Source: Blasia pusilla (lineage: Eukaryota). From it: DNA of 64,000 nucleotides. The notes under the pieces are model-generated. The model saw nothing but the letters and a program-made list of their open reading frames with translations, made no database searches and was not told where the DNA came from. Both the position numbers and the translations under genes were made by a program. Below, piece after piece: positions 11,561-58,648 of this stretch (the first letter of the stretch is position 1; every line of letters starts with the position of its first letter). The DNA is taken from assembly GCA_050084515.1 (NCBI GenBank), contig CM114271.1:18104001-18168000 (forward strand). Reading direction: 5' to 3'.

Positions 11561-14500
11561 ATTTTGCAAGGGTCCTTCTAGGATCGGCAAGGGATGCAGT
11601 AAGCCTTGTTTATTATCATAAGAAACTCTATTTGCTTAGCAAGTCACACAGGTCTTCATATATTGAGCAACATCCTCTTTCATGTTGGGCCAAAAGAACC
11701 GCTTCGACAGAACAGCTAGCGTAGATTTCTCTCCTTTATGTCCTGCCAAGGGTCCATCGTGACACTTTGCTAACACTTTGGTTCGCATCCTGCCTTGCCC
11801 AACATAGATCCTACTCTACTTGAACCATAAAAAACCGTGCCTCAAACTTATGTTGGCCACCTTCTCACCCTGCTTCAACTTCTTCAGGTACTCCCCTACA
11901 TGAGCATCCTTCATATATCCTTCACGAATCCTTCTTTCCAGGTCTCTTTCTTTAGGGAACATTGCTCTCAAGACCTGTGTCGTCGATGGCATGTGTTCCT
12001 CCTTGCGACTCAACGCATCTAGAATCACATTATCTTTACCTGGCTTGTGAATCAACTCAACATGCATTAACGCCAAGGTATCATGCCATCGCAGTTGTTT
12101 CGGTGTCACTTGATCTTGGGTCTCAAAATACTTGAGTGATATATTATCGGTGAATACTCGAGTCCTATGGAGCCCTAAATAATGCCGCCACTTCCTCAAG
12201 CAATAGACCACCGCGAACAACTCTTTCTCATGAGTGGGCCATCTTCTTTCAGTATCGCTAAGCTTCTTGCTCTCATATGCTACATGTCTCCCTTCTTGCA
12301 CCAACATTCCTGCAACCGCAAAATCACTAGCATCGGTATGCACTTCGAACGGTTTGTCAAACTCCGGCAGCTTCAATACTGGTTCCTGCGATAGAATCTG
12401 CTTCACTCGGATGAATTCCTCATTAACTTCCTGGGTCCAAGTCGTGTTGGCAAACTTTGCTGTCCAATCCGTGAGAGGTCTCACAATTCCAGAAAAGTTT
12501 TTCACATAAGTGCGATAGAACTGCACCGCACCTATGAACCTCCTCATCCCCTTTACAGTGGATGGGGGTTCCCACTCGACAATCACTTTCACCTTCTCCA
12601 TGTCTGGACTGAAGCCATCTGCACTGACCAAGTGACCCAAGAATTTGATCTTGCTCAAACCAAATTTGCTCTTCTCTACATTCGCATACAGTTGAGTTTC
12701 CCTTAGCTTAGACAAGACCGCTTTCACATGTCAAACGTGCTCCTCTAGTGACTTCAAATAGATAAGTATGTCATCAATATAGATAATAGATACTCATCCA
12801 TTTCCTTGTGAAAAATGGAGTTCATCAGTGTGGTGAACGTCGGAGGCGCGTTACATAGACCGAAAGGCATCACTACAAACTCAAAGGAACCGTATCTTGT
12901 CCTACACGCAGTCTTCTCCACATCCACCTCGGCAATCCGGATTTGGTAATATCCTGACTTCAAGTCAATCCTAGTGAAATATCTCGCGCCTGCCAGCCTA
13001 TCGAAGAGATCATCTATCCTTGGAAGAGGATAATTTTTCCGAACCATCACTTTATTCAGCGCACGGTAATCAACACACAGCCTCATCTTTCCATCCTTCT
13101 TCTTTACAAAAAGAACAAGTGCTCCATAAGATGACTTGCTAGTCCTAATGTAACCCTTTTCCAAGAGCTCACTTAACTACCTTTTCAACTCAAGAAGTTC
13201 CTCCTGATTCAACATGTATGGTGCTTTTGAGGGTGGTTGGGAACCAGGTATGATCTCTATCTTATGATCGACGGCTCTATGTGGTGGCAACTCAGTCGGA
13301 AGCTCCTTTGTCAAGACATCCTCAAACTCCTTGACCACTTCCTAAAGTGGTTCTAGGATTCCCCTTGAAACAGTGTCATGATCTCTGCGTATTTTGCTTG
13401 TAGCCTCCTCCACTTGTCTCATCAAGCAGAGAAATCCATCCTCCAACTCGGTCATGCTCCTCCTTGTAATCGAGTTTACTAACTCCTTTTTTCCCGGAAC
13501 CTCAAGGACCAACCGCACCTGTAACCGTTTTCCTTTTAGCAAGATGCTCAACCTCAAGGGTCTACATCTTAACCCCACCTCATACGCATCTAGGAATTTA
13601 TTCCCCAAGACTCCGTCAATGCCATCCATTTCGCACATAGTGAAATTCTCCTTCAACTCGAATACCCCGCATCCTACGGTCAAACCCAAGACCAATTCAG
13701 AAGTCCGATGAGACTTGCCTCCTACAAATCCTACTCAAATGGGCTCATCCGCCTTAGAGGTAGACAACCCCAGTTCCTTCACGATTCTCGGGCTTAGGAA
13801 GGAGTGCAAAGCACCTCTATCCACGAGCAACAACACATCGTGATCAGCAATCTTTGATCTTGGATCTTAGGTACACCAAATTGTGCGTCCTCTTGGTGAC
13901 CTGAAGGGACGTCTCGAGATCACCCACCAACAGATGCTTAGCGGCAAACGCAATCATACTCCCATTACTAACCTTCGGTTTCGAACACACTTTTTCCAGG
14001 TGCCCCGGTTCGCCACAGTTGTAGCATATGACCTTGCCATTCCCTGACTTTGAGTGTTGTCCTTCTCTCGGCTTCGCATGAAGTTCCACTCGTTTTGCTG
14101 CCATGGCAGACGACTCTCCTGGATCGTGTAGGCCCCCTCTCCAGACTCTTTTGAACGTCTCCTTATTTTTTGACTTCTTCGAAAAACCTTTTGGCTCAAA
14201 GGATTTTGGGTTTGGACCTCATCGTCCCCAATCCGCTCCGCTAGCTTCAGAAGATCCGTGCATGTATCTAGCAACGTCGGCATTCGGTAAAGGGCCTTTT
14301 CAGTGCTCGACTTGAGTCTACTAATGAAGATAGCCTTCTTTGCGTGCTCATCCATCTTTGGAAGAGAAGTCAGTTTCGCACTTAACTCCCTCATATACGC
14401 GCTTAAGGAACCACTTTGCCGCATCCGCACGCATTCCACCGTATCGCGCAACCCTTGGTACTCTGGAGTGAATCGATCCCCAATCAACACCTTAAACTCC

Positions 14501-28131: not shown

Positions 28132-31100
28132 ATAGGCATAATGAGACCCATCATCCATCACTTTGGTTTCCATTCTAGATGTTGTGATGTAGGATTGCCC
28201 AAGAATCACAAAATAAGCAACTCCATTTTGAACAAAGAAGTTTTGCTCAATCAACACATCTTCGATACAAGTTTTAACATATGAACAAGCGCCATAGAAT
28301 TCATCTTCCTGATTAGTGGCCACACGTAGTACTCATCCATATCGTGTATCAATTGGCTAGATTCCTTTGTCGTGTATACTTTCTGACATAATGTTGAATT
28401 ATGAACCATGACAGACGAGAACTAGAATTGACCCTAAGATAGAGCCTAGTCAAACTCCGACCTCCATCCTTGCACCTGCCCAATAGAATCAAGAATAGTG
28501 ACCACCATTGTGCTTTTCTTTAATTTTTTCTATTAAAGCTTCCCCTACTCTCGCCTCTTATGCTTGTAAGTCAAGCCTTTGTCCAAAAACTTGTCCAAGC
28601 TCTTCGCCTTCTCCTTCTGTAATGTGAGTATCCAATGCCCTAACCATCACCACATCTAGATCTGCAGTCATTTGCCTTTTTCTCTTGATCACCTCTATGA
28701 TCAATTCATGAAAGTCACGTTTGGATATCCCCAAGACTTCCCTCAAAGAAAACTCTATTTTTTGCATCCAAAATCTCTTCCTTAAGAATCTCTTTCAAAT
28801 TTATGCTTATCTCTATATCAGATTGCAGCTTCTATGTAGGAATCTTATCCTTGGTCTTATGAGGAGATCTCGATTCTTTCTCCTTTATCCTTGCTTCTTT
28901 GATATGAGAATGCATCATATATTCAGATGTGGAAGGCCCTTCTTCTCTTGATGGCTACACCTTCAGTTGCCCTTTCCTTCTCATGGTTCTCGCTCTTCTT
29001 AAAGCTTCCTCAAGATCAACACCATTATTATCGTGTCTCCTCTTCTCCTCCACAATTGCATCTTGCCAACTTACATGTTTATCTTGTGTTAGATATGCTT
29101 TAAGATATTCAGCTTCCACCGGATCATCCCATCTAGTGAGATGACAGATAATCTCTGCCTATAACTCTCGAGCTCACGGAACCACTCTAGAGTTACTCAA
29201 AGGTAGAATGTCCCTCGAGGCCTCTCCTCTTCCCTTTATATACTTAGAGATAGGTATGATGAAGACAAATTAGCTCTTCCTATCTGTATGTCATATGTCC
29301 TAGTCTCATAGCATGAGAGGATCGTCTTTGGACTTTAATGTCCCAACCTCATCTTCCTCAATCTCATCCTTATATTCCTTTTCACCAACCTATGGCCCCA
29401 CTCTCATCTTTATCCCATGTATCTTATTTTTTCTCTTTTTGGTTGATTTTTCCCACTTATGCGCTTCATGTCATAGATTCTAACTTAACTATGACTAACA
29501 AAAGATGGTTACAAACCTCCCCCCATTTAAGACACAACGTATTCATTGTGAGAACTTTTAAACTCTTACACTATTTATGGTGCGCTGGCCAAGTTGGCTT
29601 AGGGTTCCCATGTGGCCTCAAATAGTGGATATCCTTTCCATTGGACCAAGTATTCAACTCGTTGGTGATGAGCTCCTCAAGTGCATTTCTTCAAGATACG
29701 TTCACTTTAGAAAGACCATGATGGACAAAAATTGTCTCGATATAGATCCAAGCCAACTTTGGTGCAGTCACAATCTTCTTGGTTGGACAAAGATGGATAA
29801 TCTTGTTTAGTCTATCCATCAAGACTACAATATAATCATATATCGTGATCGTATATGGTAGCTCACAAAAAATATCCATAGTGACTTGTTCCCAATATTA
29901 TTGAGGTATTGGGATGGGCTGTAACAACCTTGTTGGTTTTGTGTTACTAGCCTTTAATTGTTAACAAATCCTACAACTCTTTACGTATACGTCAACATCT
30001 TGTCTCATTTTGGGCCAATAGTATGCACGTTGTAATCCTTCAAGGTTTCTTCAACTCCTATATGACCCGCAATGATTATGTCGTGAGCTTTAGACAATAC
30101 TTCAGTGCATAACTATGGATCTTATGGGATCCATACTTTACCTTTATGGAAAACGAATCCTTGAGCCTTGTGTATTTTGTTGGGCTGGATAGTAACTACA
30201 ATTTTTTCATCCTATTTTGTGGCTTTGGATAACTTTTTTCACCGACTAGAGTGAATATCCACTTCATACATATTATTCATATATGGTATACGAGTCAAGG
30301 CGTATGCCAACTACTTATTTTCTTCCACATAGATAATTTTCATCGTGAATTATTTTTGTCATTCTCCCCATCGAATTTGGTGTTTGGAAAGCTTTTTTTG
30401 GGACTCTAAGTAGACCAAGGGCTTGTGATCTGTCTCCACCACAAACTCCTTGTCGTCTAAGTAATATTTCCAATGCTTGGTTGGTAGCACAATAGCGAGT
30501 TCTTTTCGCTCAATTGTATAGTAGTTTTGCTTAATTGGCAATAACTTGCGAGAAAAAGAGGCAATAGGATGTCATCCATCCTCCCATTTTTGTTGTAGTA
30601 CTCCTCCAATGCTAGTACCTGAAGCATAGGGGCTTTGATCAAGACATCCTTTAATGATTGAAAAACAATCTCTTATGATGTGCCCCAATTCCATTTTTAT
30701 TCTTTCCCTAGTAGTCATCAAAGATCGTGCAATTTGAGCAAAACCTTTGACAAATCTTCCAATGAATCCTGTTAATCCTAGAAATCTTTTCAATTGAGTT
30801 TGATCCTCATGTGCATCCTATTTTTTGATCGCTTTTACCTTCTTACTCATCACTTAAATACCTTCTGCGCTTACTCAATGCCCTTGATAATCAACTTCTG
30901 TCTTACCGAACTCACATTTTGAAGCTTTAGCATACAACTCATTTTCTCTTATGATTTGAAGGATTTATTGTAGATGATTTATATGCTCATCAATGGTTTT
31001 ACTATAGACTAATATATCATCTAAGAAAACAATTATAGACTTATCTAAATATGGACGAAAGATATCAATCATTAGGCCCATAAAGGTTGGAGGTGCATGA

Positions 31101-31965
31101 GTAAGACCAAATGACATGACTAAGTATTCAAAGTGTTCATACCTAGTACGAAACGCAGTCTTGGGCACATCTTCATCTGCAATTTGAATTTGGTTATAGC
31201 CGCTTCTAAGGTCTAGTTTGGTGAAGTATTTTACTTATCGTAGTTGGTCAAACAAATCATTCATTCTTGATAATGGATATTTGTTTTTTAATGTTTGTTG
31301 ATTCAGTGCTCGATAGTCAATACAAAGTTGCATGCTTCCATCCTTATTTTTCACAAAAAAAGGAGAGGGGCTACATATGGCGAGACGCTTGGTTGGATGA
31401 AGAAGCCTTTTTGCAACATCTCCTCCACTTTGGCTTTGCATTCTTCTAATTCCCTTGGAGCTACGCGGTTAGGAGTCTTACATGATGGTGTGCTTCCTAG
31501 AAGGACCTCAATCTTGTGGTCTACCCTCTGTTTGGGTGGTAACCCTCATGGTAAATCATTTGGGAATACATATTTATATTCCTCCAATATTTCTCTCAAT
31601 TCGTCTAGTACCTCTTAATATTTTTTCAAACCACCAATATCTCTTATTAAACCTAGGAAACATACATCTTGAGGTTTGATGACGGTTTTTCCTATTACAT
31701 ATAGGGGTAGGATTTTAAGACGTGATCTAACTTTATATTCGTAAAGCTTCCACTTTCGGGTCTTCACAAATTTTTTTCTCCAATCTACTTGTGAATTTTA
31801 CTGTTCTATTCAAGGCATTTACGAGATAACATCATAACGTGTTAATCTAACGATTTTAATCTCCAACTCTACCTAACACTTTCCTATCCTCGACTCTGCC
31901 CTTCGAGGAAGCTTCTCGAACTTTTATGTTTGCCCATTTGGAAATTCTATCTCTTCTTTTTTATG

Positions 31966-32438
31966 TGTCGTGCGAATCCACATCGTCATACAACATACAT
32001 CGATGACATATCATATTCACAAACATACATAACATAAACGAGAGCATCCACAAACACAAGTGTACGACAACTGAAATCCGTGAAAGACCTACTGTCATAA
32101 AGCACGTATAGAATCACATACAATCGAGCCAAATCCACTCCACGATGGGAGAATCCAGGTCGAAGCTTGCGGGAATCACCATAGTGAAGAGCTCTACTCA
32201 CTACCAAGGCTAACTCCCAACGCAACAGGCTCAACTCAAAGAACTAACTATTTTTTGAGTGCACTCCACACTATATCCTCCAACCTGAGAGCGGGCCCTA
32301 TTGGAAAAGTCACCCTCAACGAGTAACCCCCAACCCTATGTATGAAACCGCATCTCTACCTAGACACTACGCCCCTACATAAGGTATGGCCTCTACTAGC
32401 ACACTATACTCTACGACATAATCCGTATGGTCATGACA
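31966..32438 (-). repeat. Solo LTR of the DNMT-carrying Gypsy family
   Basis: Reverse complement of 56385-56851 (TGTCATGACCATACGG...GGATTCGCACGACA); flanks TATG/TATC (4-bp TSD, 1 mismatch). Confidence 0.9.
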
Positions 32439-33129
32439 TATCCCTCTCTAAAGCTAAGCCCAATTTCATAGTTATGGCTCTTGAAATGAAGTTTTCTCTT
32501 GCCCTAGGATCAATCAACACTCTAACTTGGGTTCCTTATAATTCCCCATTTATTATAATGAGACGCGTTTATCCTAACTTCAAACTATTTACCTCCACAT
32601 GTTTGTGTCGACCCTCGTCTTTCCTCCTTTTGTTAGAACGAGTATATCCACGAGGCGCGATTAGTCGTGGTTGGCGTTTCCCTGAGATCCACCAAGCTTC
32701 TTTTTCATCTTTCTCAATATGTCTTCCTTCAAGATAATTAAGACGACAACGATATGGCTTATTTGCGAGCCTACGAAGACGATAATTCATGGCTATATCA
32801 CCATATCTACCATATTCAAAATATTAGAATGTATCTCTTCGGACTTTGAATTCTCTCCCTCCTCTAGGAATCCCAATCCCGTCGATTCGAGGAGCAATCC
32901 CTTGTATGTTGGAATTTGATCTCTCTCCATTGACATCCTTCCATTATACCTCGGCGGCGCATAACCATATCGTGCTTGAAGATTATCTAAGTGCATGGAT
33001 ATGGATCTGTAGTGGTTTTTCATGGAAGGAACCACCTCTCCTCCTCCTTCGTACATATTTTCCATACATTGGGCATATGCGATTGCTTCATTGATATCTT
33101 TTGGGTTTTCTGGAATCACCTCTTGACGT

Positions 33130-46700: not shown

Positions 46701-49700
46701 AGAGAATATTTCTTGATTTGTATGAAGAATGTTTCCACCATTGTAATCAAAGCAATGTGAGCCAAGATCAATGGCGATTGCTTGCAATTCATATGAATGA
46801 AAAATACCAAGTGACCATACCATATGAGTCACAAATGTTAAGAAAAAAATTAGATGGGTTAGTAAAAAAGTATAAGAGTGAAAAAATGAAACAAGGTCAA
46901 ACCGGTACCGCACCAAGTGAGTTGGAATATTATGCTTAAATACATAGGTTTAGAGGTCCATTTCCAAAAGAATCATGAATACCTGGTGCATGTGATGGTG
47001 ATACTAACATCCAAGATGTCATGACCATACGGATTATGTCGTAGAGTATAGTGCTGGTAGAGGCCATTCCTTATGTAGGACCGTAGTGGCTTGGTAGAGA
47101 TGCGGTTCCATACATAGGGTTGGGGTTACTCACTTGGGGTGACTTTCCCAGTAGGGCCCGCTCTTAGGTTGGAGGATATAAGGTGGCTTGCCCTCAAAGA
47201 ACAGTCAGTTCTTTGAGTTGAGCCTGTTGCGTTGGGAGTTAGCCTTGGTAGTGAGTAGAGATCTTGGCTATGGTGTTTCCCGCAAGCTTCGACCTAGATT
47301 CTCCCATCGTGGAATGGGTTTGGCTCGATTGTATGTGATTGTAAACGTGTTTAATGCGATGAGGTCTTTCACGGATTTCACTCAAAGAACTCGGAGTAGA
47401 TCGATGGTAGCCGATTGTAGATCAAGAGATTTGGTTAGGGTTGATTGTGTACTCAACCGTGGATATTCGCGGCTTGTTGCCTATGTTGGAGGTGTGAATC
47501 AGGTGCGTGGTTGGTTGGGAAAGAAGCGCCTTGCTGAGAGCTTTCCAACGCGTTATAGATCGCGGATTTCGTCAAGGGAGTTGGAAGTTATCAAGCATTG
47601 AAGATTAGTTCGTGTTCGACAATTTTTACGATGTGGAGAGCTTGGAGTGCGGAAGCTCTGTTGAAGTTCATCCAGATCGGGTGAGAGGTTCCTATTGCTA
47701 CTTGTATTGTGATCTCATGTGAAGCTATCTCGCCGAGTGCGTGGAGCGTTATGGATTTCTGCGTGCATGAAACTTGGCGGAAGCGCTGCCGGATTTGCGG
47801 TTCTAGAGGTGTATGGACAGCAAGTTTGTATGATTTTTAGCTCGGAGTACGGAGCTCGGTTGTAGTTGATTTTTTGTGGGGAGATAGCTATGGTGGTCAA
47901 TTGAATTCTGATTGAAACAGATTTGATTTCGGTCACGTATTTGTGAAGAAATTTTTGATCGAAATTTCGCGGACTAGCTCAAGGTCTAGCTATGGTGGAC
48001 AGCGGATCGGAGGGGCTGGTTGGTTGGTGACTCGTTCATTGTTGGAGACACCTATCCCGTTAGGGGCGCCCTGGTTGGACCTCTCTCCATAGCGAAGCAT
48101 GGCGAAGCATGGCAAACGGGGCATGTCTCGAGCATTTTGAGGCTTCGAGGCAACTCGTGGTAGCTCGGGGCGAGTGGGCGTGAGAGGCGGAGTAAGGAGC
48201 AAGGAGCAAGGAGCAAGCAAGCAAGCTTGCTTGCTTGGGCGTGAGGCAATTTTTGCAGGATTTGGGATTTGAGTTTTGCATAACTGGTCACCTATCTTTG
48301 GGCTATTCTACCTGGAGGACGCTTAACTGCTGAGTTCTTAACTATGCTAGTGTACATACTGTTGTAGCTCATTTGGTGCTGTTCGGAGAGGTGTTAGGCA
48401 CTTTATGCATCTCAGGTTTTTGGTTGATGTACCTCTAGCGCATAGTACGGTGTAGCCTCTCCATGCAGGTGATATTTTCAGGTGTCTTTGCGAGTTCGAC
48501 CGGCACGTCATCGACCGTGGCGGAGTAGCTATTGCGTTAGAATTGTGTGGTGGGTTTTGTGGATTCGAGAGGGCACCACGTTTGGTGGATTGTGTTACCT
48601 TGATTTCCATTTGCGATTGGAGGGTTGTCGTTGGATTTCTGTGTTTGGATCCCCTCCATTGTGCTTTTGCTTGCGCCCATTGTTAGGGTTGACGCTGATT
48701 TCCATAGTAGTGTTACTCTGTGTGCTACTTGATAGTGAGGTGGAGTGATGACCGATGAGACCGTGGGAGTCTTCTTGTGGTGATGAGAGGTTAGGTTGCC
48801 TACACCCATAGCTAGTAGAGCTACAATAGTAGAGCGACATCGGCGTCACTTGGGTAATTTGGTGGTGGTGCGGCATCGGCGTTGGTCATCACGGAGTCGG
48901 GTGGTCGGTTTGGGACCGTGGTGCGGGACAAGTGTTGGTTTCACACGGAGTGGATTTAGGTATCGCTACCTTTTCCACTTTCGACGATTGATGAAGAGGA
49001 GGGCGAGGGTGTTCCAAACACCGAGTCTTCTACGTTGTTATCGAGTGTTGCGGCTCCATTGATTTGGGACATGGACGGTGGATATGGGGCCATGAAGGGC
49101 CCACGACAATACTCGGGTGTAGTGGGTACCATTGAGTTGGAGGACTTCATGCAGGAGTTTGATACGTGGTGTGATATGCAGATGTTTGAACGGCACGTTG
49201 TTTACACCCTTCTTGGCTTGGAAGGGGTTGTTTCAAAGACTTGGAAGGACCACCCATGGATGATTACCATGAGTTTAGGAAGGACCATGTTGTTGAGATT
49301 GAGGCATGGAGACAATATTGGTCTCAGGCTATGTGTCTATCACCCATGGTGGTATTGGTAGTAGTGCTCCTACTATGCCCGGCCGGCCCGACGTTGAGTG
49401 AGTGGTACGAGCACTGAGCCGGAGTGGGGGTACCGTGGAGGTACTAGTGGGGGTACTAGTGGAGGTACTAGTGCCCCACCATCATTTAGCCAGTTTTGCA
49501 GAGTTCTTCAAGAGGTTGAAGAAGAACTATCAAGGAGTGAAGACGGAGAAGTTGAGGAATCTTCAGGACTTTGAGCGAAAAGACTGGTGAGAGTCTTCGT
49601 GAGGCATACACGCGTATCGACGCTTGATTTCAGATTACCAGGGTGTGGACCGAGGATTAGGCAGCCGATCGATTTTGGTATGGGATCTTGGAGAGATTTG

Positions 49701-51726
49701 CGCCGTAGGGTGCGTGATGCTACTCTTATGAGTGATGATTCACCCACATTGACCCATGTGTTTGCTCTATCTCGAGAAGATTGAGCTTAACATGGTGAAG
49801 GAGAGAGTGGTGACATCCGCATTCAAGAGGGGATACAACTACTACTTCTCATGTTCACCGCCCACCTCACAGTCTCGTAGTAGTGGTGGTGGTAGTAGTA
49901 GTGGGAGTCGTGGGGGTACACGCGACCTCGTCAAGTCCTAGAGGGACATTTGTGTAGAGACCATTGCCTTCATTTGCTGCCCGCAGCAAGGACAATCATG
50001 TTGGACATGTGGAGGTGATCATGTTAGGAATTTTTGTCCCCAAGAGGATGGGGGCGGACTTTGGAGGATGGGCCTCGGTCGGCCCCAACTCGGTGTGATC
50101 ATTGTGGAGACTAGGTCATCCTCGAGAGCATTGCTTTGATCTTCATCCGAGTTGAGATCAGGCCGTGGCCGTGGTGGAGTAGCTCGAGAGGCCGAGGTGG
50201 TAGAGGTGGTAGAGGTGGACCAATGGTTAGAGAGCCTCACGGTGGCTACCCCTACCACTACGACAGAGTCGCACTATGGTCGCCAAAGATTGAGCAGTTG
50301 GAGCAGAGTTGGCTACTATGGTCGGTATCCAACATAGATCAGGAGTTCGGGAGCAGGGCTTCCACCTCTTATGGAGGGGATGATCTCTCTTATATGGCGA
50401 GTGCAAAGGGGTTGAGGCATCACCGAGCAGATCGAGAGAGGAGCCACTCGAGCGTCGAGCCACGTGGTGCTATGTGGAGTTGGACCCATAGAGGGGTGAG
50501 GTGGGGAGGCGAGCTAGGCTTCCCAGTCATTCTTGTTGTCCGAGGTGCTTAGGACTCCATCCATGGTTCCTACGCATCCTATTGAGCCAGCAGTGGGGAT
50601 CGGGCATCTACATCGCGTGTAGTAGACACGGATGCAGACTTCAAAGGCGATTGCGGATGGCAACCGGTGTTGGGATCCCCATTGTTTTCGGCCACTGAGG
50701 CGATGGCTTTAGGAGTTGACTTAGCTCTGTATTTCAGCTAGCGACCACATTGTGTGAACGTGGGGGTATTCTTGCTACACGTGTTGAGGTGGATGAGGAT
50801 GTTGCGGTGGAGCGACCCTCTATGTCGAGTAGCATTGAGTACCGGTGCTACTTGGCATGCAAAGCAGAGGCGAAGATGGATGCATTACGGCCGGCCAACC
50901 ATTGATCGTGAGAGGCTTACACTGGTGTATGTATGTTGGACAACCAGAGTGGGATCTTCCGATTGGTGAGTCCAACAGGACAGGTGTATAAACCAGATAG
51001 AGTCTTGTTAGACTCAGGTGCCCAACCTTTGATGTTGGGAAAGCGGCATGTATTGGTTTGGGTATTCGGAGGTCGAGCTTGAGCCTTGCCCATTCCGATT
51101 CAAACATCACTTGGAGGAGCCAATGATAGGTCTCAATTCATGACACGGGAAAAGTTTTTTGTACAGTTGAGACCAGATCATGCGACTGATAGCTCCCGGT
51201 TGGGAGTATCTGCGGTAGTCACATCGGCCGAGTCGTATGATGTACTAGTTGGAGGAGCGATTGTACCCGATGGGTTTTGGATGGATTACTGGATCGAGAC
51301 AGCGTCTTATAGACCAGGTTAGCGGCAAGACGGGATGGACGTATGAGCCAAGTTCGTGTGAGATTTATTTGGGGCTCGACCAGGAGGGTCTTCCCCAACA
51401 AGTGTTAGCATCTATGCCTGGTTTTAGTGGAGTAGTCACTTGGCCAGAGACTTTTTGAGGGTAATGTTTCGCTATGGATTCTCCTGCATGCATGAGGAGG
51501 TAGAGGAGGTCCCTATTTTTGCAGCAAATGGCATCCTCATCATTGGATGTGCCACTTTGGAGGAGTGCACTCAAAGCAGAGGGCGTCGCCTAGTGCAGAG
51601 GCTTGGTGTGAGGTCAGTTATACCTCACGAGGAAGAGGAGGCCCCACGGCGGACTCCTACGCCTGGTCCAGTTAGGTTATCCCTTTGGATACTACACCCA
51701 TTGTATGGCAAGTATCCGCCGGAGGG

Positions 51727-52670
51727 CATTTGTGTGTTAGATCTCTTTGGTGGGATTAGCACTGGTTTGGCAGATGTTGCAGCCGGTATTCTGTCTTGGA
51801 GATACGTGTATGTGGAGCGAGATGAGACGGTCCAGAGAGTCTCATCCCGACATATTGGTCAGTTGATGCGGAGATATCCTGAGTTGTTGTCGCCATCAGC
51901 TATTCGTGGGTACCAGCGTGCTTTACCATCACACATTGCATTGTTGGGGGCGCAGGACCTTGAGAGGGTTGGTCCTGTGGATTTGGTGATTGCTGGATGG
52001 CCATGTCAAGGTCATACACGTGCTGGTCGTGGTGAGGGATTACATGACCCTAGGTCTCGATTGTTTTGGGAGATGTTACGGGTGTTACGACATCTTCAGG
52101 TTCATCAGGCACGTGCTCTAGCTTACATTCTGGAGAATGTTCCATTGTTGGGTGACACTCGGACCCGGATGATGGCGAGTGTTCATGAGGTGCGGTCTTG
52201 GATTGGACCGGCGGTGTTGTTGGATGCAAAGGCGAGTTGGCTCAGCGTGCACATCGCTTGTGCTTGTGGTGGACAAACTTGTTGCTTAGGAGGTTCTCGT
52301 CGAGCATATGATGCAAAGGCAACGGGATCCTCGCCTTTACGGTGGATAGTATCTTGATCTTGGGCAACTTTCTCAAGTGGTGAGGGTTATTGATCGGTCA
52401 CCCATGGCGGTGGTGAACCGGTGGGCGACCTAGGATGGCGCTACCCACATTTGTGAGTTTTCCTCGTCACATGCCTAGGGAAGGGGGTCCGGGGCTTGTA
52501 TGGGATTCTCATGTGCGAAAGTTGGTGGAGCCTAACGCTCATGAGAGAGAGCGTGCGATGGGATTTGCTCTTGGTGTGACAAAGCGGTTGCTTCTAACCG
52601 AGGCTTCACGACGTCATGTGTTGGGTCATGCCATGGACCTGAATTGTTTGACTTGGATTTTGAGTCTTGG
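51727..52670 (+). CDS. C5 cytosine DNA methyltransferase domain (DNMT3-like motif layout) within the retroelement pol; frameshifted
   Basis: Motif I VLDLFGGISTG; II YVERD; IV DLVIAGWPCQG (catalytic PC); V-like PRSRLFWE; VI YILENV; VIII RAHRLCLWWTN (shifted frame ~52245); IX EPNAHERERAMGF; X RRHVLGHAMDL. Confidence 0.92.
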
Positions 52671-55600
52671 TATGGCCGAGCAAGCAGCGTCGACTTCGGA
52701 CTATGTCGTGGGTCTTCCACCCCTTGTAATGAGCTCGATGGCTATCGGGGACGGTAGAGGCATCGGTCAGCGAGGAGAGTAGTATTTTGCATCCTTGGAG
52801 TAAATGGGATGTAATGGCTGGGCATGTGGAGTTGGTTGCTCATGCTAGTGGAGGAGTTATTTGCTCAGATGATGGTGTAGCTAAGGGTGTACCATCTTGT
52901 GAGGGGGTTATGAGCGACCAATGGCATCGTCCTCTCCCTCTAGTGTGCCAGTGGAGGAGACTTGGGAGCCATTACTTGGGCCCAAGCTTACGGGAGGTGA
53001 GAAACGACGCTTGACACAATTCCTACGTGCTTATAGGATTTGTTTTGCCTTTAGCATGAAGGAGTTGGGTTCTCTGGTTGGACCCGGTATACGGATTGAT
53101 TTGGCTAGTGATACGCCAATCTTCCGTCGTCCCTACCGATATAGTGATATGGAGAGGGACTTGATTCAGAGTAGGACGTTGGACCTTTTGGAGGCTGGAT
53201 TAGTGGAGTTGTCTCATGGAGAGTATGCATCAGCCACTATCATGCCTGCTAAAAAGGATATGCATGGCAACTACACGGATAGGCGGATGTGTGGAGATTA
53301 CCATCCTATCAATCGGCAAACCAAGGCCGATAGGTATGCCATGCCTACACCTGAGGAGATCTTTGATGTGGTGAGACAGGCAAAGATTTTCAGTACTTTG
53401 GATCTTCGGGCAGGATACCATCAATTGCCGATTCGGGAGAGTGACAAGGCCAAGACAGCATTTTGGGGTGTCAACTCTCATGGCAAGGATTGTTTGTACC
53501 AATGCAAATTCTTACCCTTTGGGTTGAAGAATGCACCTTCCGAGTTTCAAAGAGTGATGGACAGGATCCTAGCAGGGTTGGATTTTGTTCGGTGTTACAT
53601 TGATGATATCTTGGTGTTCAGTAACACGGTGGAGGAGCATCAGATACATTTGCAGATGGTGTTTGAGCGGTTGAAAGCTCATGGTCTACGTTGCATCCGG
53701 AAAGTGTAAGTTCTTCCATGAGGATGTTGAGTACTTGGGTCATGTGATCTATCCAGGTGGTTTGGGAGTTCAGCAAGCAAAGGTGGAGGCTATTGCACTT
53801 ATTCCGCGTCCGGTAGATGTGAGTAGAGTTCGAGCATTCATGGGATTGGCGAACTACTATCGGAGGTATGTGAAGGATTTAGTGCTATGGCAAAGCCTTT
53901 GAACCAATTGCTGAATCAGATCAAGAGTGGCACTATGGTGAGATGATCGGGAGAGAGCTTTTGGGGAGCTTAAGGCCCAGTTGGTGGCGGCGCCTATCTT
54001 GAGGAGACCTATCGAGGGCGCCCATTTGATTACACGATTGGAGTAGGTTGGGACTTGGAGCGGTGTTGACACAACATGATGATGAGCACATGGAGTTTGT
54101 GGTGGCCTATGCAAGTCGTTCGAATAATGCAATGGAGTCGCGCTTTAGTTCATATGAGGGAGAGTACTTGGCAAGAGTGTGGGTGTGGGCACACTTTAGG
54201 TGTTACTTGTTTGGCACAATACGATTTACCCTTGTTACGATCACCGGCCGCTCAAGTGGTTGATGGAGTCGGACAAGCTTACAGGGAAGCTTGCACGGTG
54301 GGCTCTTATCTTACAGAGTATGACTTCGGGTGGTACATAGACCTGGAGTTGCCAACCTTGATCTTGATGGGTTGAGTAGGAACCCATGTACTAGCCAAGA
54401 GGATACAATCGGGGCTAGATGGCATGGCGAGGTTGATGAGGAGATGGTGCTAGGTTGGCATGCATCCGCCTTTTATGTTGGTTAGGTGGACTCTAGTATG
54501 GAGGACCACATGATATCTTACTCTAGTCGAGGGTAGATGGCCACCTTGAGATCCTAAGGTTGGAGATGGTGGTACGGATGAGCGTGATATTCATGATGAT
54601 GCGTTGGTGTTGGAGTTCCTACGGACCAAGAGGGTGCTAGGCATAGTGAGTGCCAAGGAGCGAGACCGTGTTCTTCAACGTGCTAAGAGGTATCGATTGG
54701 AGGGAACACATATTCTCCGCATGTGGGAGGATGGTAGAGTACGAGTAGTGCCACATTTGGCTCGAGAGAGCGATTGTGCGACATGCCCATGAGGAGTTGG
54801 GACATTTTGGGGTAAAGCGTGACGTATAGCTTACTCCGTGGCCACTATTGGTGGCGTGGCATGCATACTCAGGTGCAGCAGATTGGTGTCACGTTGTATG
54901 GTTTGTGACCGGGTGAGGGCATCATTTAATGCCCCTACACCACAATTACACCCCTTGCCTATTATGGGGTTGGGTTACCGTTGGAGTGTGGACTTTGCGG
55001 GGACCGTTATTGATTGGTATCGACATCATCGATATGTGTTGGTGATGGTGGAGCACTTCTCCAAGTGGATTGAGTTGGTGGCATTACGGACAAGGCAAGT
55101 GAGGAACGGCGATGCGTTTGGATAGAGTGCTTAGTCATTTTGGTGCACCACCGGTGAAGTGTCGACCAACCAGGGTCTGCAATTTCAGGGTGAGTTTCAC
55201 GTCTTGTGTGACAAGGCGTTGATTGATCATCGGACCACGTCTCGAGATCATCCAGAGGCGGATGGTTTGGTGAGCGTGTGGTTCAGACGGTGAAGAGGGC
55301 ATTGCGTAAGTATGGCCTCTGAAGGGGCATCTTGGAGATTGGGATATTCGTTGCCATGGTTAGCCATGGGGTATAGGTTCGCCGCCAAGCATCCTTGGCT
55401 TCCTTCTCACCTTATTTTTCATTATACGGCCGAGATCCAGACTTGCCAAAGAAGAATTGCGTCGGGAGTCTAGTGAGGTGGTGGACCTTGATGACCGAGA
55501 GATGTGGATGAGGGTGTGTTCTCGTAGGCGGAGCTCTTTTGGAGAGTTATGCCAATGACCTTTGAGAATCTTGCCATTGCTCAACACAGGGATACGTTGC

Positions 55601-55879
55601 GGTATGCAACCATTCGGGTGGAGGTTATCGACCAGCGATTCGTAGGTTCCATGTGGGGGACTATGTCTATTTGCAGCAGATTGCCCCGACAACGTTGGAT
55701 GTGACGGCAGCCGCACTATTTTACGAGTGCGTGAGGTGTTAGCTTTTGGAGTTCTCATGTTGGAGGGTCGTGATGGAGTTGTTTGGAAGGACCATGTGCG
55801 TAATTATGCGCCATGTCATCTTCCAAATATGGATGGTATTATTGACCCAAGCTTAGCCATGATACGTGCTAGCTTGAGG

Positions 55880-56019
55880 TGCATGTTGTGTGGGTCTGCT
55901 GTAACGTAGCCCGTATGTTGGTGTGTGATCGGTGTTCTAGGGTTGGCACATGATGTGTTTGACTCCACGTTTGGATGTTGTTCCTACTTTGGAAGGTGGG
56001 TTTGTCTCGATGTACTTAG
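55880..56019 (+). CDS. PHD finger at the integrase C-terminus (frameshifted)
   Basis: CMLCGS...MLVCDRCSR(G)WHMMCLTPRLDVVP..RWVC.RCT* = C4HC3 with typical PHD residues. Confidence 0.85.
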
Positions 56020-56384
56020 GAGAGGTAGATGACTTGATCTTTGCATGATATGGATTACGGATGTGCGATTAACGATGGGGCAACCTAGCATCGGGCACCA
56101 AGAAGGTGTATAACATGTAGTAGATTACACGGGAGTTAGGGACCCAAGAAGGTGTATAGCATGTAGTAGATGTGTATAGGGCTATGGTAATGGGAGTTAG
56201 AGGGACCTAACCAGTTGTCATGATTACGGGGGGATCTTTGCATGATATGGATTACACTTGCGTTTGTGGATACTCTTCGATTCGGGCACCCAAGAATGTT
56301 ATGTAGGGCTGTATGTGAGTATGGTATGTCGTCTATGTTATGTTGTATGACGTATGGGATTCGATGTATGTTGTATGACAAATT

Positions 56385-56851
56385 TGTCATGACCATACGG
56401 ATTATGTCGAGAGTATAGTCTTTGGTAGAGGCCATTCCTTATGTAGGACCGTAGTGGCTTGGTAGAGATGCGGTTCCATACATAGGGTTGGGGTTACTCA
56501 CTTGGGGGTGACTTTCCCAATAGGGCCCGCTCTTAGGTTGGAGGATATAAGGTGGCTTGCCCTCAAAGAACATTCTTTGAGTTGAGCCTGCTATGCGTTG
56601 GGAGTTAGCCTTGGTAGTGAGTAGAGATCTTGGCTATGGTGTTTCCCGCAAGCTTCGACCTAGATTCTCCCATCGTGGAGTGGGTTTGGCTCGATTGTAT
56701 GTGATTGTAAACGTGTTTAATGATGAGAGGTCTTTCACGGATTTCGTTGTGGTACACTTGCGTTTGTGGATACTCTCGTCTATGTTATGTATGTATGTGA
56801 GTATGGTATGTCAGCGATGTATGTTGTATGACGATGGGGATTCGCACGACA
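56385..56851 (+). repeat. 3' LTR (467 bp) of the DNMT-Gypsy
   Basis: TGTCATGAC...GCACGACA; matches 47017-47380 and the solo LTR at 31966-32438. Confidence 0.93.
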
Positions 56852-57383
56852 AAGAATGCGTTGGTATGGATGCTTTTGTTGATTTGAGAGAAGAAGATCT
56901 CATTCATACTAAATCTCAACCGTCATTTATTCACATTCTATCCGATGAGGGTGAGAAATTTATGGATGAATTGAGCAATCCACCTATTCATCCATCTATA
57001 GATACACCATTATGTGAACCAAAAGATATATCTCGAACTCACACATCCAATGTGAATTCAAGTGAAGCTCTACCTACCGAACAAAGTCCAAGAAGCAAAG
57101 CATGTTCTCGACCGGGTATTACAGGACAACCAAACAGAAAAAGATAGTCGAGAGATACCAGTGATAACATTACACAATCAATAAATGGCTTTATTCAAGT
57201 TTTGAAGGAGATAAGTGAGAAGAAAGCTCAAAAAGAAGATAAAAATTGGAGCTCATGTCTCAATTGTTTGAACTTCGTTGTATGGAGTTCCAGTTGAAGA
57301 GAGAAAATCAAGCAGGAAAATCATAAAAAACAAATACTTCTGAAAAAGAAGTATGTATGATCTACCTTAAGCTCTATCGTCGC

Positions 57384-58648
57384 TCAAGTAAGCATGTGTG
57401 TCATAAAATCTTTAAACAGTGTTGCTCGCATAAGTTCATCCGCGATTGTTCTTCTCCCCTCAACTGTACTTTTAGGTTGTGATAGGATAATCCCACCATT
57501 CATCCTATCATCCACTGGATTGATGTCTTGCGGTAAGGGCTCTGTATGTAGGATAACAAAATTATGGAGGACTCCGCATGCAAGCGTTATTTGAGAAACC
57601 ATTTCTAGAGAGATTGGGCAATCGCGTAGAATTGTCCGGCTTCCTTTCAAATGACCAAAAGCATTTTCTATTGTCACTCTTGCCTTTGATGTATGTCTAT
57701 CAAATATATTTTCCAATGGATTGCCTTGATGTAGGTGTCGATGGAAACGCTTCAATAGCCATGGTTGTAGGGGATAGGCGGTATTCTCAAGTATTATGGG
57801 CGGAATGCCTTGAAGTTCTCCGTGATCAAGCGACAATGTAAGTTCTGGTTGAGAAAGGAAACGTTTCTCTTCAATGCATTGAAACAATGTAGATTGCCTT
57901 AAATATGCAGCATCATGAGTGGATCCAGACTTGGTACAACATAAGTCCCAAAACTTCAGATGGGCATCACATATACCTTGGAGAAGCACCGAATAATCAG
58001 AGTGACAATTCCCATAGTGCTATGGGAAATATTTCACAGCAGGTTTGAATTTAAGTTTTATGTGAGACCCATCTATGGCACCTATGATTTGTGAACCTCC
58101 ACAAATACGCTTATATTTGCGCATTTGTTCAATCATTTCATCAATTGTTGGCCATCTATCATATTTGGCATACAATTTATGTCTACTCAATAGAATGTCA
58201 ATGATAATGGATGTGTATTTGACAATTGTCGATTGTCCAATTCCGTATAAGTCACTCAAGATTCAAATTGGTGGATTGTGAGCAAATCAGTAGATAACGC
58301 AACACACTTTGCCATCTTAACTATTTTTCTTGCTCTCTCCCACGATGACACAAGTGACATGAATGGTTCAATCACATCTACTAGCTTCTGGAAATTTTCA
58401 AAATACATTCTATGTCGACTTCTCATGTGAGTGTAAAGAAAATCGTTATTATAAGTCCAAACCTCTTTATGAATGATCTCCCACCAAGTGAATTGTCTTG
58501 GTATTACCCAAAATTCTTTTCCTCCATTTGATTGATTTCGATGCCACTCTGCGATCATGAAATAGAACATGAATAAACTTTGAATATTGACTTCGTCATC
58601 TTCCGTGGTCCGCATCATAAAAGTAACGAGCTCGATTTCACTAAACAT
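57384..58648 (-). pseudogene. Harbinger DDE transposase (HARBI1/DDE_Tnp_4-like), inactivated
   Basis: SDLYGIGQSTI HTH, IIGAIDGSHI, LLQGICDAHLKFWD...GSTHDA, ILENTAYPL (canonical GDxAYPL, second Asp lost), RVTIENAFGHLKG, ACGVLHNF; stop at ~58020 and frameshift at ~58258. Confidence 0.9.

Follow-up and report, generated by a model that had tools for sequence, protein, structure and literature searches.

A decayed PHD finger behind the integrase of a dead Gypsy-DNMT3-type element, and its probable part in the choice of insertion sites

Positions 55880 to 56019 of the 64,000-nucleotide stretch of DNA analysed here (the window; 41% G+C) contain the residues of a C4HC3 PHD finger, and the question raised by this locus is what a finger of a histone-reading type would do at the end of the pol region of a retroelement that also encodes a DNA methyltransferase. 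The first-pass annotation had proposed that the finger ends the pol frame where chromoviruses carry a chromodomain, and that it pairs a reader of chromatin with a writer of DNA methylation in one element. Our preferred reading, to which we give a probability of about 0.6, is that the window holds a dead element of the Gypsy-DNMT3 type with a decayed integrase PHD, and that in working members of the family this PHD docks the intasome on the histone H3 tail and thereby biases insertion.

The features of the element are collected in Table 1. Repeats, flanks and tblastn comparisons identify a single insertion of 9.8 kb (47017-56851) that begins with TG and ends with CA, and its 4-bp target duplication fits insertion by a DDE integrase. 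The order within it is A1, a 1.7-kb leader, gag, protease (PR), the DNMT3-like methyltransferase (DNMT), reverse transcriptase (RT), RNase H, integrase (IN), the integrase C-terminal domain, the finger and B1-A2-B2. By tblastn the DNMT is located between protease and RT, and the gap of ~3 kb (~1000 codons) between it and the finger is occupied by the RT, RNase H and integrase regions. The coding sequence of Pol is dispersed over all three frames, every domain being broken (tblastn), and the window copy is therefore dead. The DNMT itself breaks between 52357 and 52417, its C-terminal part running on to 52764 in another frame (tblastn), and the translation of its ORF retains LFGGIS, GWPCQ and ENVP. 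Searches of the window's own ORFs with Pfam returned no match in the gag/protease region, and for the integrase core a weak rve match (E 0.0038) that is below the cut-off. The proposal that the same element encodes a DNA-methylation writer was upheld both by the PF00145 match in the window and by the nearest solved relatives of the family enzyme (Marchantia protein P0004), which are DNMT3A, DNMT3B and DNMT3C (E 1.7e-8).

Table 1. Coordinates of the element, of its parts and of a related solo repeat in the window
Feature	Positions	Strand	Evidence or remark
Solo A-B repeat of the element's family	31966..32439	-	88.7% over 477 columns to 56385-56851
Target-site duplication, 5' copy AAGA	47013..47016	.	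Same 4 bases flank element bases 47017 and 56851
Repeat A1, 5' LTR-like, starts TG	47017..47379	+	95.4% identity over 368 columns to 56385-56745
Gag-like and protease region, several frames	49071..51581	+	tblastn with Marchantia P0004 residues 1-831, E down to 1e-168 (joined pieces)
DNMT3-like C5 cytosine methyltransferase	51428..52764	+	PF00145 E 2.4e-9 in ORF 51428-52357; tblastn
Reverse transcriptase	52903..54027	+	RVT_1 E 4.5e-24 in ORF 52903-53709; tblastn with P0014
RNase H	53889..54473	+	tblastn with P0014 residues 740-935 and P0097 residues 2-190; both RT_RNaseH by Pfam
Integrase, zinc-binding domain and catalytic core, frame breaks	54550..55617	+	tblastn with P0097 residues 235-592, E 7e-79
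Integrase C-terminal domain	55646..55879	+	Real reading from ~55712; residues of 55712-55906 match relatives
C4HC3 PHD finger, decayed	55880..56019	+	Four indels, premature TAG 55907-55909, family stop 56017-56019
Repeat B1, directly before A2	56253..56380	+	56253-56276 = 56753-56776 (24/24); 56296-56363 vs 56782-56844 85.5%
Repeat A2, 3' copy of A	56385..56745	+	95.4% to A1
Repeat B2, element end (CA)	56753..56851	+	56385-56851 matches solo copy 32438-31966; likeness stops at same base in both
Target-site duplication, 3' copy AAGA	56852..56855	.	Identical to 47013..47016

Several other features of the window and of the family should be mentioned here. The leader (47380-49070), which separates A1 from the first gag-like match, is unusually long and contains no recognised domain. 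Target duplications read AAGA in the window, CATA at the related loci L003 and L063, and G/CATA at the solo repeat, perhaps a hint of a preference for targets such as CATA. The solo repeat has, to judge from its sequence, the form left by A1/A2 recombination. About 530 bases downstream of the element there is a remnant of a PIF/Harbinger-type DDE_Tnp_4 transposase (57384-58019, minus strand, E 6e-16), and two unrelated Gypsy RT/RNase H/IN remnants occupy 11579-13083 and 29715-31330, both on the minus strand.

The window retains all eight zinc-ligand codons of the finger (C,C / C,C / H,C / C,C), from the first Cys codon, which starts at 55880, to the TAG that ends the finger in relatives, but they are spread over three frames. 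The ORF from 55646 to 55909, which is that of the integrase, reads ...IDPSLAMIRASLRCMLCGSAVT (LRCMLCGSAVT) at its C-terminus and is closed by the premature TAG; beyond it, ARMLVCDRCSR is found in the second frame and GWHMMCLTP..VVP in the third, and the W.C and RCT-stop of the finger need further frame changes. When the DNA of the finger (~140 nt, 92% mean column identity) was aligned with that of four loci in which it is in frame (L009, L003, L042 and L022), the window differed by indels of -1, -1, +2 and -1 and otherwise corresponded base for base, which argues that its finger is the decayed remnant of a real PHD and not a chance pattern. The window's own fragment (ORF 55646-55909) gave no Pfam match, because its frames are broken, and identification as a PHD thus rests on the relatives. 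The finger in the window is, then, a real but decayed PHD remnant; the coordinates and eight ligand codons first reported for it are exact, whereas the accompanying claim that it ends the pol frame does not hold for this copy, with its three frames, four indels and TAG at 55907.

The state of the finger in other copies from the same organism was examined with contigs of four public runs (X1, X4, X7 and X9), aligned to the window at 85% likeness, for which contig depth is a rough measure. At three of the four indel sites (55939, 55988 and 56005), X4 and X7 contained only the frame-keeping form (depths of 11.3/11.3 and 20.9/20.9, respectively). In the DNA run X9 this form took 1776/3369, 638/1157 and 853/1491 of the depth at the three sites, and in the DNA run X1 it took 10060/96882, 3607/29339 and 12012/57404; the indel state of the window corresponds to about half of the X9 depth and most of the X1 depth. 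The T at 55907, which makes the TAG, is C in 3080/3130 of the depth in X1, in 740/740 in X9 and in all of the X4 and X7 depth. A 420-nt X7 contig that covers the finger aligns with 5 gap letters, as the four indels together would give. These depths suggest that the TAG is private to the window copy and that the three indels occur in a considerable part of the copies. It may be that a lineage whose finger is truncated has multiplied, which would argue that the finger is not indispensable in cis. That errors of assembly had produced the frame breaks was considered; X9, an independent DNA run, shares the three indel states in about half of its depth, and at the level of the organism the indels are therefore real variants.

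In relatives, the finger is found where the broken frames of the window would place it. The residues of 55712-55906 (65, before the finger) gave 75 protein matches of 52-96% identity (best E 1.4e-30), including Marchantia polymorpha, Sphagnum fallax, Calypogeia fissa and many contigs, and PF00628 is listed for 59 of the 75. The strict pattern C-x2-C-x(8-14)-C-x2-C-x4-H-x2-C-x(10-20)-C-x2-C is kept in 38 of them, in every one of which (38/38) the last Cys lies 1-7 residues from the end of the protein; the others are cut short or exhibit decay of the Cys-to-Tyr or His-to-Tyr type. In P0097 (728 aa) a single ORF contains RNase H, both integrase domains and a PHD at residues 681-725, and P0062, P0044 and P0041 likewise join IN and PHD in one ORF; PF00628 is above its cut-off of 24 bits in these four proteins and in the Marchantia protein P0036 (43.2 bits, E 3.9e-11). 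Pfam scans of eight close relatives gave no match to the Chromo family, whose place is held by the PHD. Intact relatives thus confirm the part of the earlier proposal that placed the PHD at the chromodomain's position in frame with the integrase, and we conclude that the enzyme has in the PHD a genuine and conserved extension at its C-terminus.

A script rule found the finger in 66 of the 68 related metagenome loci that were long enough, and L070, one of the two misses, does carry it, behind an insertion. None of the 80 metagenome loci contains an intact full-length element, and their longest plus-strand ORF is 467 aa, from which the family appears to be old, and decayed wherever its DNA was seen. 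A DNMT-based search for full polyproteins returned 31 matches; 21 were scanned, and all of these stop short of the end of the integrase. For the PHD codons, median dN/dS was 0.90 in 861 mostly recent pairs and 0.13 in the only 8 pairs with dS >0.5, a difference that points to neutral decay of dead copies atop purifying selection between lineages. Four loci (L062, L064, L065 and L066) share an internal deletion that fuses gag to the distal two thirds of the integrase and spares the finger; this form recurs as if mobilised in trans.

The distribution of the DNMT could be followed in the same material. It lies upstream of the integrase, on the same strand, in 32 of the 41 loci that extend for 3.4 kb or more in that direction. 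The remaining nine are 5'-truncated in or before RT (L002, L042, L053, L061, L071, L073 and L074) or are gag-to-integrase deletions (L062 and L064), and in none of the nine is protease joined directly to RT; a complete element lacking the DNMT was accordingly rejected as an explanation for any of them. Where the PR-RT interval is kept, the DNMT is present in 32 of 32 loci.

A wider search, in which a profile of integrase plus finger was compared with 1.84 billion 50%-identity cluster representatives, gave 807 matches at E <=1e-30. Among the best 150 of these 807, a strict C4HC3 finger is found behind the integrase in 133 and a DNMT in 72, and the homologous fingers match PF00628 at E 1e-7 to 4e-13. 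Named members of the clade come from Scenedesmus, Haematococcus, Tetrabaena and Cymbomonas. Pfam analysis of 18 long members revealed another architecture, RT-RNaseH-DNMT-IN-PHD, behind which stands a tail of ~330 residues. Most algal relatives are of this kind, and of 255 proteins classified 98 have the order RT-RNaseH-DNMT-IN-PHD and 9 that of the window, with DNMT before RT. Roughly 100 of 120 polyproteins with RT, IN and PHD contain a DNMT. Twenty do not; eight of these start near RT and are uninformative, and P0190 and P0213 have long N-terminal parts in which there is no DNMT. The co-occurrence of PHD and DNMT that the first-pass annotation had put forward for study is therefore very common without being obligatory, and the finger is more widely distributed in the clade than the pairing.

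The algal tail, seen in P0112, P0137, P0154, P0166, P0128 and others, is conserved and includes DPWxGxG and (T/S)PW motifs, with weak Pfam hints of a D12 N6-adenine methyltransferase (E 0.033) and of a Tudor-like stretch (E 0.007). In an AlphaFold model that includes the tail (mean pLDDT 81.7), VIA-align matched residues 474-652 with METTL5 (Z 12.0) and M.TaqI (Z 11.7); Foldseek, run on the 655-residue model as a whole, matched it mostly to integrases, and the fold of the tail comes from VIA-align only. Neighbours of the tail in the ESM Atlas are phage N6-methylase-like clusters. As modelled, the domain behind the PHD in the chlorophyte relatives matches an amino-methyltransferase fold. A tail of this type is absent from the window and from 80 of 80 loci. 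Single proteins of the clade showed other additions: P0313 is listed with Chromo as well as PHD, a G-patch separates DNMT from integrase in P0166, and CCCH zinc fingers occur N-terminally in P0198.

We compared the finger with solved structures and examined its alignment for residues that bear on its type. The best solved matches are PHF12, CHD4, PHF21A, the ATXR5 PHD, KDM5B PHD1, KMT2D, DPF3, AIRE and UHRF1 (E 6e-15 to 1e-7), which are known as readers of the unmodified H3 N-terminus, and none of the 60 solved matches listed is an ING, BPTF or TAF3 finger. Readers of K4me3 have a cage Trp two residues before the zinc-binding His. That residue is Gly, not Trp, in 79 of 92 fingers of the family, and the window and bryophyte fingers read R-G-W-H around the His. 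The zinc ligands are invariant or nearly so in the family alignment, and a ML(V/L)CD strand, an Asp after Cys3 and a P-x-G-x-W loop are conserved. At the finger, the Pfam matches of eight close relatives were PF00628 and NSD-type PHD models only, with no ADD model. On these grounds the finger resembles, in sequence, the readers of the unmodified H3 tail. The wider family has an Asp two residues before Cys1 in 41 of 92 fingers and a P-D-D-E loop between Cys2 and Cys3, whereas the bryophyte branch has G-L-R/K before Cys1 and non-acidic loops (KGGAAH, AVQAAR and similar). The acidic K4/R2-contact residues of K4me0 readers are thus present in the wider family and absent from the bryophyte branch, and with this loss K4 specificity may differ or be weak in the latter.

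Elements comparable to the one in the window are known. KnitGypsy-Dnmt3, or Gypsy-DNMT3, was described from streptophytes (de Mendoza et al. 2018, PMC5890265) and is named again in bioRxiv 10.64898/2026.05.21.726589; according to the legends of Fig. 4 and Fig. 1e in PMC5890265, its repeats are laid out as A-coding-B-A-B. The window element is similar in having a DNMT3-related methyltransferase inside a Gypsy-type Pol in a streptophyte host, the Gypsy domain order RT - RNase H - DDE integrase, and the repeats A1, coding region, B1, A2 and B2, i.e., the layout given in those legends. The B-A-B arrangement recurs in L003 and L063, two B copies are also present in L005, L049, L058 and L075, and the A1-A2 pair was found in L003, L028 and L063. 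Judged by domain content, domain order and repeat layout, the element belongs to the Gypsy-DNMT3 group, as a dead member of bryophyte type. It differs from KnitGypsy-Dnmt3 in coming from a bryophyte genome and not from Klebsormidium, and no Klebsormidium sequence was among the relatives returned by the DNMT, integrase and finger searches. The word PHD does not occur in the text and three supplements of PMC5890265, and in the literature searched no Gypsy element with a DNMT is described as carrying a PHD at the end of its integrase.

The placement of the finger has a counterpart in the chromoviruses (Ty3/gypsy, e.g., MAGGY), which have a chromodomain at the integrase C-terminus, for which a targeting role has been published. 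In both cases a small domain of histone-reader type stands behind the integrase C-terminal domain at the end of Pol and presumably serves the choice of insertion sites; in contrast to the chromoviruses, the domain here is a zinc-binding PHD, and its likely ligand is the H3 N-terminus and not H3K9me. PHDs have also been reported in CR1 LINEs, in REM1 and other Chlamydomonas elements and in cnidarian retrotransposons with a PYGO-like PHD, and they are called common in transposons and a probable chromatin-targeting device (PMC6673714, PMC8557442, bioRxiv 10.1101/2021.11.30.470311). There, as here, a retroelement has the PHD as an accessory domain, so that an addition of this kind is not new in mobile elements; those reports describe no finger at the integrase end of a DNMT-bearing Gypsy. 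The DAM-LTRs/EpiLTRs of chlorophytes and Euglena contain a chromodomain, DAM and a 3' DNMT, with no PHD mentioned in the description consulted, which also gives DAM-LTRs as absent from Streptophyta (bioRxiv 10.64898/2026.05.21.726589). Like the present clade, whose chlorophyte PHD relatives have the modelled amino-methyltransferase-fold domain, they are LTR elements that stack several epigenetic domains; unlike them, the window branch is without such a tail, in agreement with the absence reported from Streptophyta.

The finger is on the integrase in every architecture seen, it stands at the place of the chromodomain, and its tail-binding framework is kept, all of which argues for a function in integration targeting. 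In working members of the family, Pol comprises protease, DNMT3-like methyltransferase, RT, RNase H, integrase and PHD, followed by the stop. The PHD would tether the integrase, or intasome, to nucleosomes through the H3 N-terminal tail and would thus bias the landing sites of new copies; its predicted reading of the unmethylated tail would lead insertion away from promoters methylated at H3K4. The DNMT would be a separate product of Pol that acts on the element's own DNA. Against the targeting role stands the observation that copies with indels like those of the window account for about half of the X9 depth at the three sites, as do the loss of the acidic residues in the bryophyte branch, to which the window belongs, and the existence of PHDs with non-histone partners.

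Alternatively, the finger might not read histones, and might instead bind a non-histone host factor or nucleic acid, or serve as a structural zinc module in integrase assembly. Some PHDs do bind non-histone partners, among them PHF12, which is the best solved match and the second PHD of which is a protein-interaction module. The loss of the acidic K4-contact residues in the bryophyte branch would be in keeping with such a role, as would the use of host proteins for targeting by other integrases (Ty3 with TFIIIB is among the fold matches). However, the conserved features of the family (the ML(V/L)CD strand, the Asp after Cys3 and the PxGxW loop) are those of an H3-tail-binding framework, and the close solved sequence relatives are all chromatin proteins, and we regard a finger of this other kind as unlikely.

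A coupled read/write module, the idea of the first-pass annotation, would make the element a mobile analogue of animal ADD-DNMT3: by reading H3K4me0, the PHD would direct or license the DNMT3-like enzyme that the element itself encodes. In animal DNMT3 the ADD domain (a GATA-like finger plus a PHD) reads the unmethylated H3K4 tail and adjoins the methyltransferase on one chain. The window family would likewise encode a candidate reader of PHD type and a DNMT3-type writer in one gene, but here a single canonical PHD is fused to the integrase and not to the methyltransferase. The finger is a plain PHD ~3 kb from the DNMT, and not an ADD domain. The constancy of the pairing (32/32 loci with the PR-RT interval, and the ~100 polyproteins) and the type of the finger, which is that of readers of unmodified H3, speak for such coupling, and in the 98 polyproteins of algal order the DNMT directly precedes IN-PHD and could stay on one polypeptide with the reader; coupling is conceivable in general, and more so in that order. 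In the window branch, however, ~1000 codons intervene, and Pol proteins are normally cut by the protease. The 20 PHD-integrase proteins without a DNMT, including P0190 and P0213, also weigh against it, as does the constant attachment of the finger to the integrase throughout the architectures seen, which integration targeting would predict. We consider coupling of reader and writer rather improbable for these reasons; that the element methylates itself or its landing site according to chromatin state is, similarly, the less likely reading.

The notion that the finger is a chance pattern, a misread zinc motif of integrase or gag, or a host exon captured by one copy might draw on the lack of a Pfam match in the window fragment and on the four frame changes required there, but it is ruled out, to within a negligible residue of doubt, by the PF00628 matches of the homologous fingers, by their presence in the related loci (L070 included) and in most of the best 150 distant representatives, and by the base-for-base alignment with in-frame copies.

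Integration targeting by the finger remains our preferred reading, and a broader proposal, which we put forward as doubtful, may be added to it. The elements would form a large and old green-lineage clade of Ty3/gypsy, from chlorophytes to bryophytes, with a portable epigenetic kit made up of a DNMT3-like 5mC writer and an integrase-borne H3-tail reader, to which the chlorophytes would add the Tudor-like stretch and the amino-methyltransferase-fold domain; reader and writer, or writers, would cooperate in choosing H3K4-unmethylated chromatin and in marking the element's own new copy. If this were true, the clade would parallel the ADD-DNMT3 logic of animals in a mobile and self-contained form.

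The window itself is ordinary, a dead copy amid a transposon-rich stretch, and the interest of the finger lies in the family. If it guides integration, the family would be a second independent case, beside the chromoviruses, of a retrotransposon that reads histone marks for safe landing, and one set in early land plants, for which maps of chromatin have been made. The pairing of reader and DNA-methylation writer extends over hundreds of sequence clusters and two domain orders, and with it the question whether a mobile element manipulates its epigenetic state can be tested on naturally intact copies from Marchantia or green algae.
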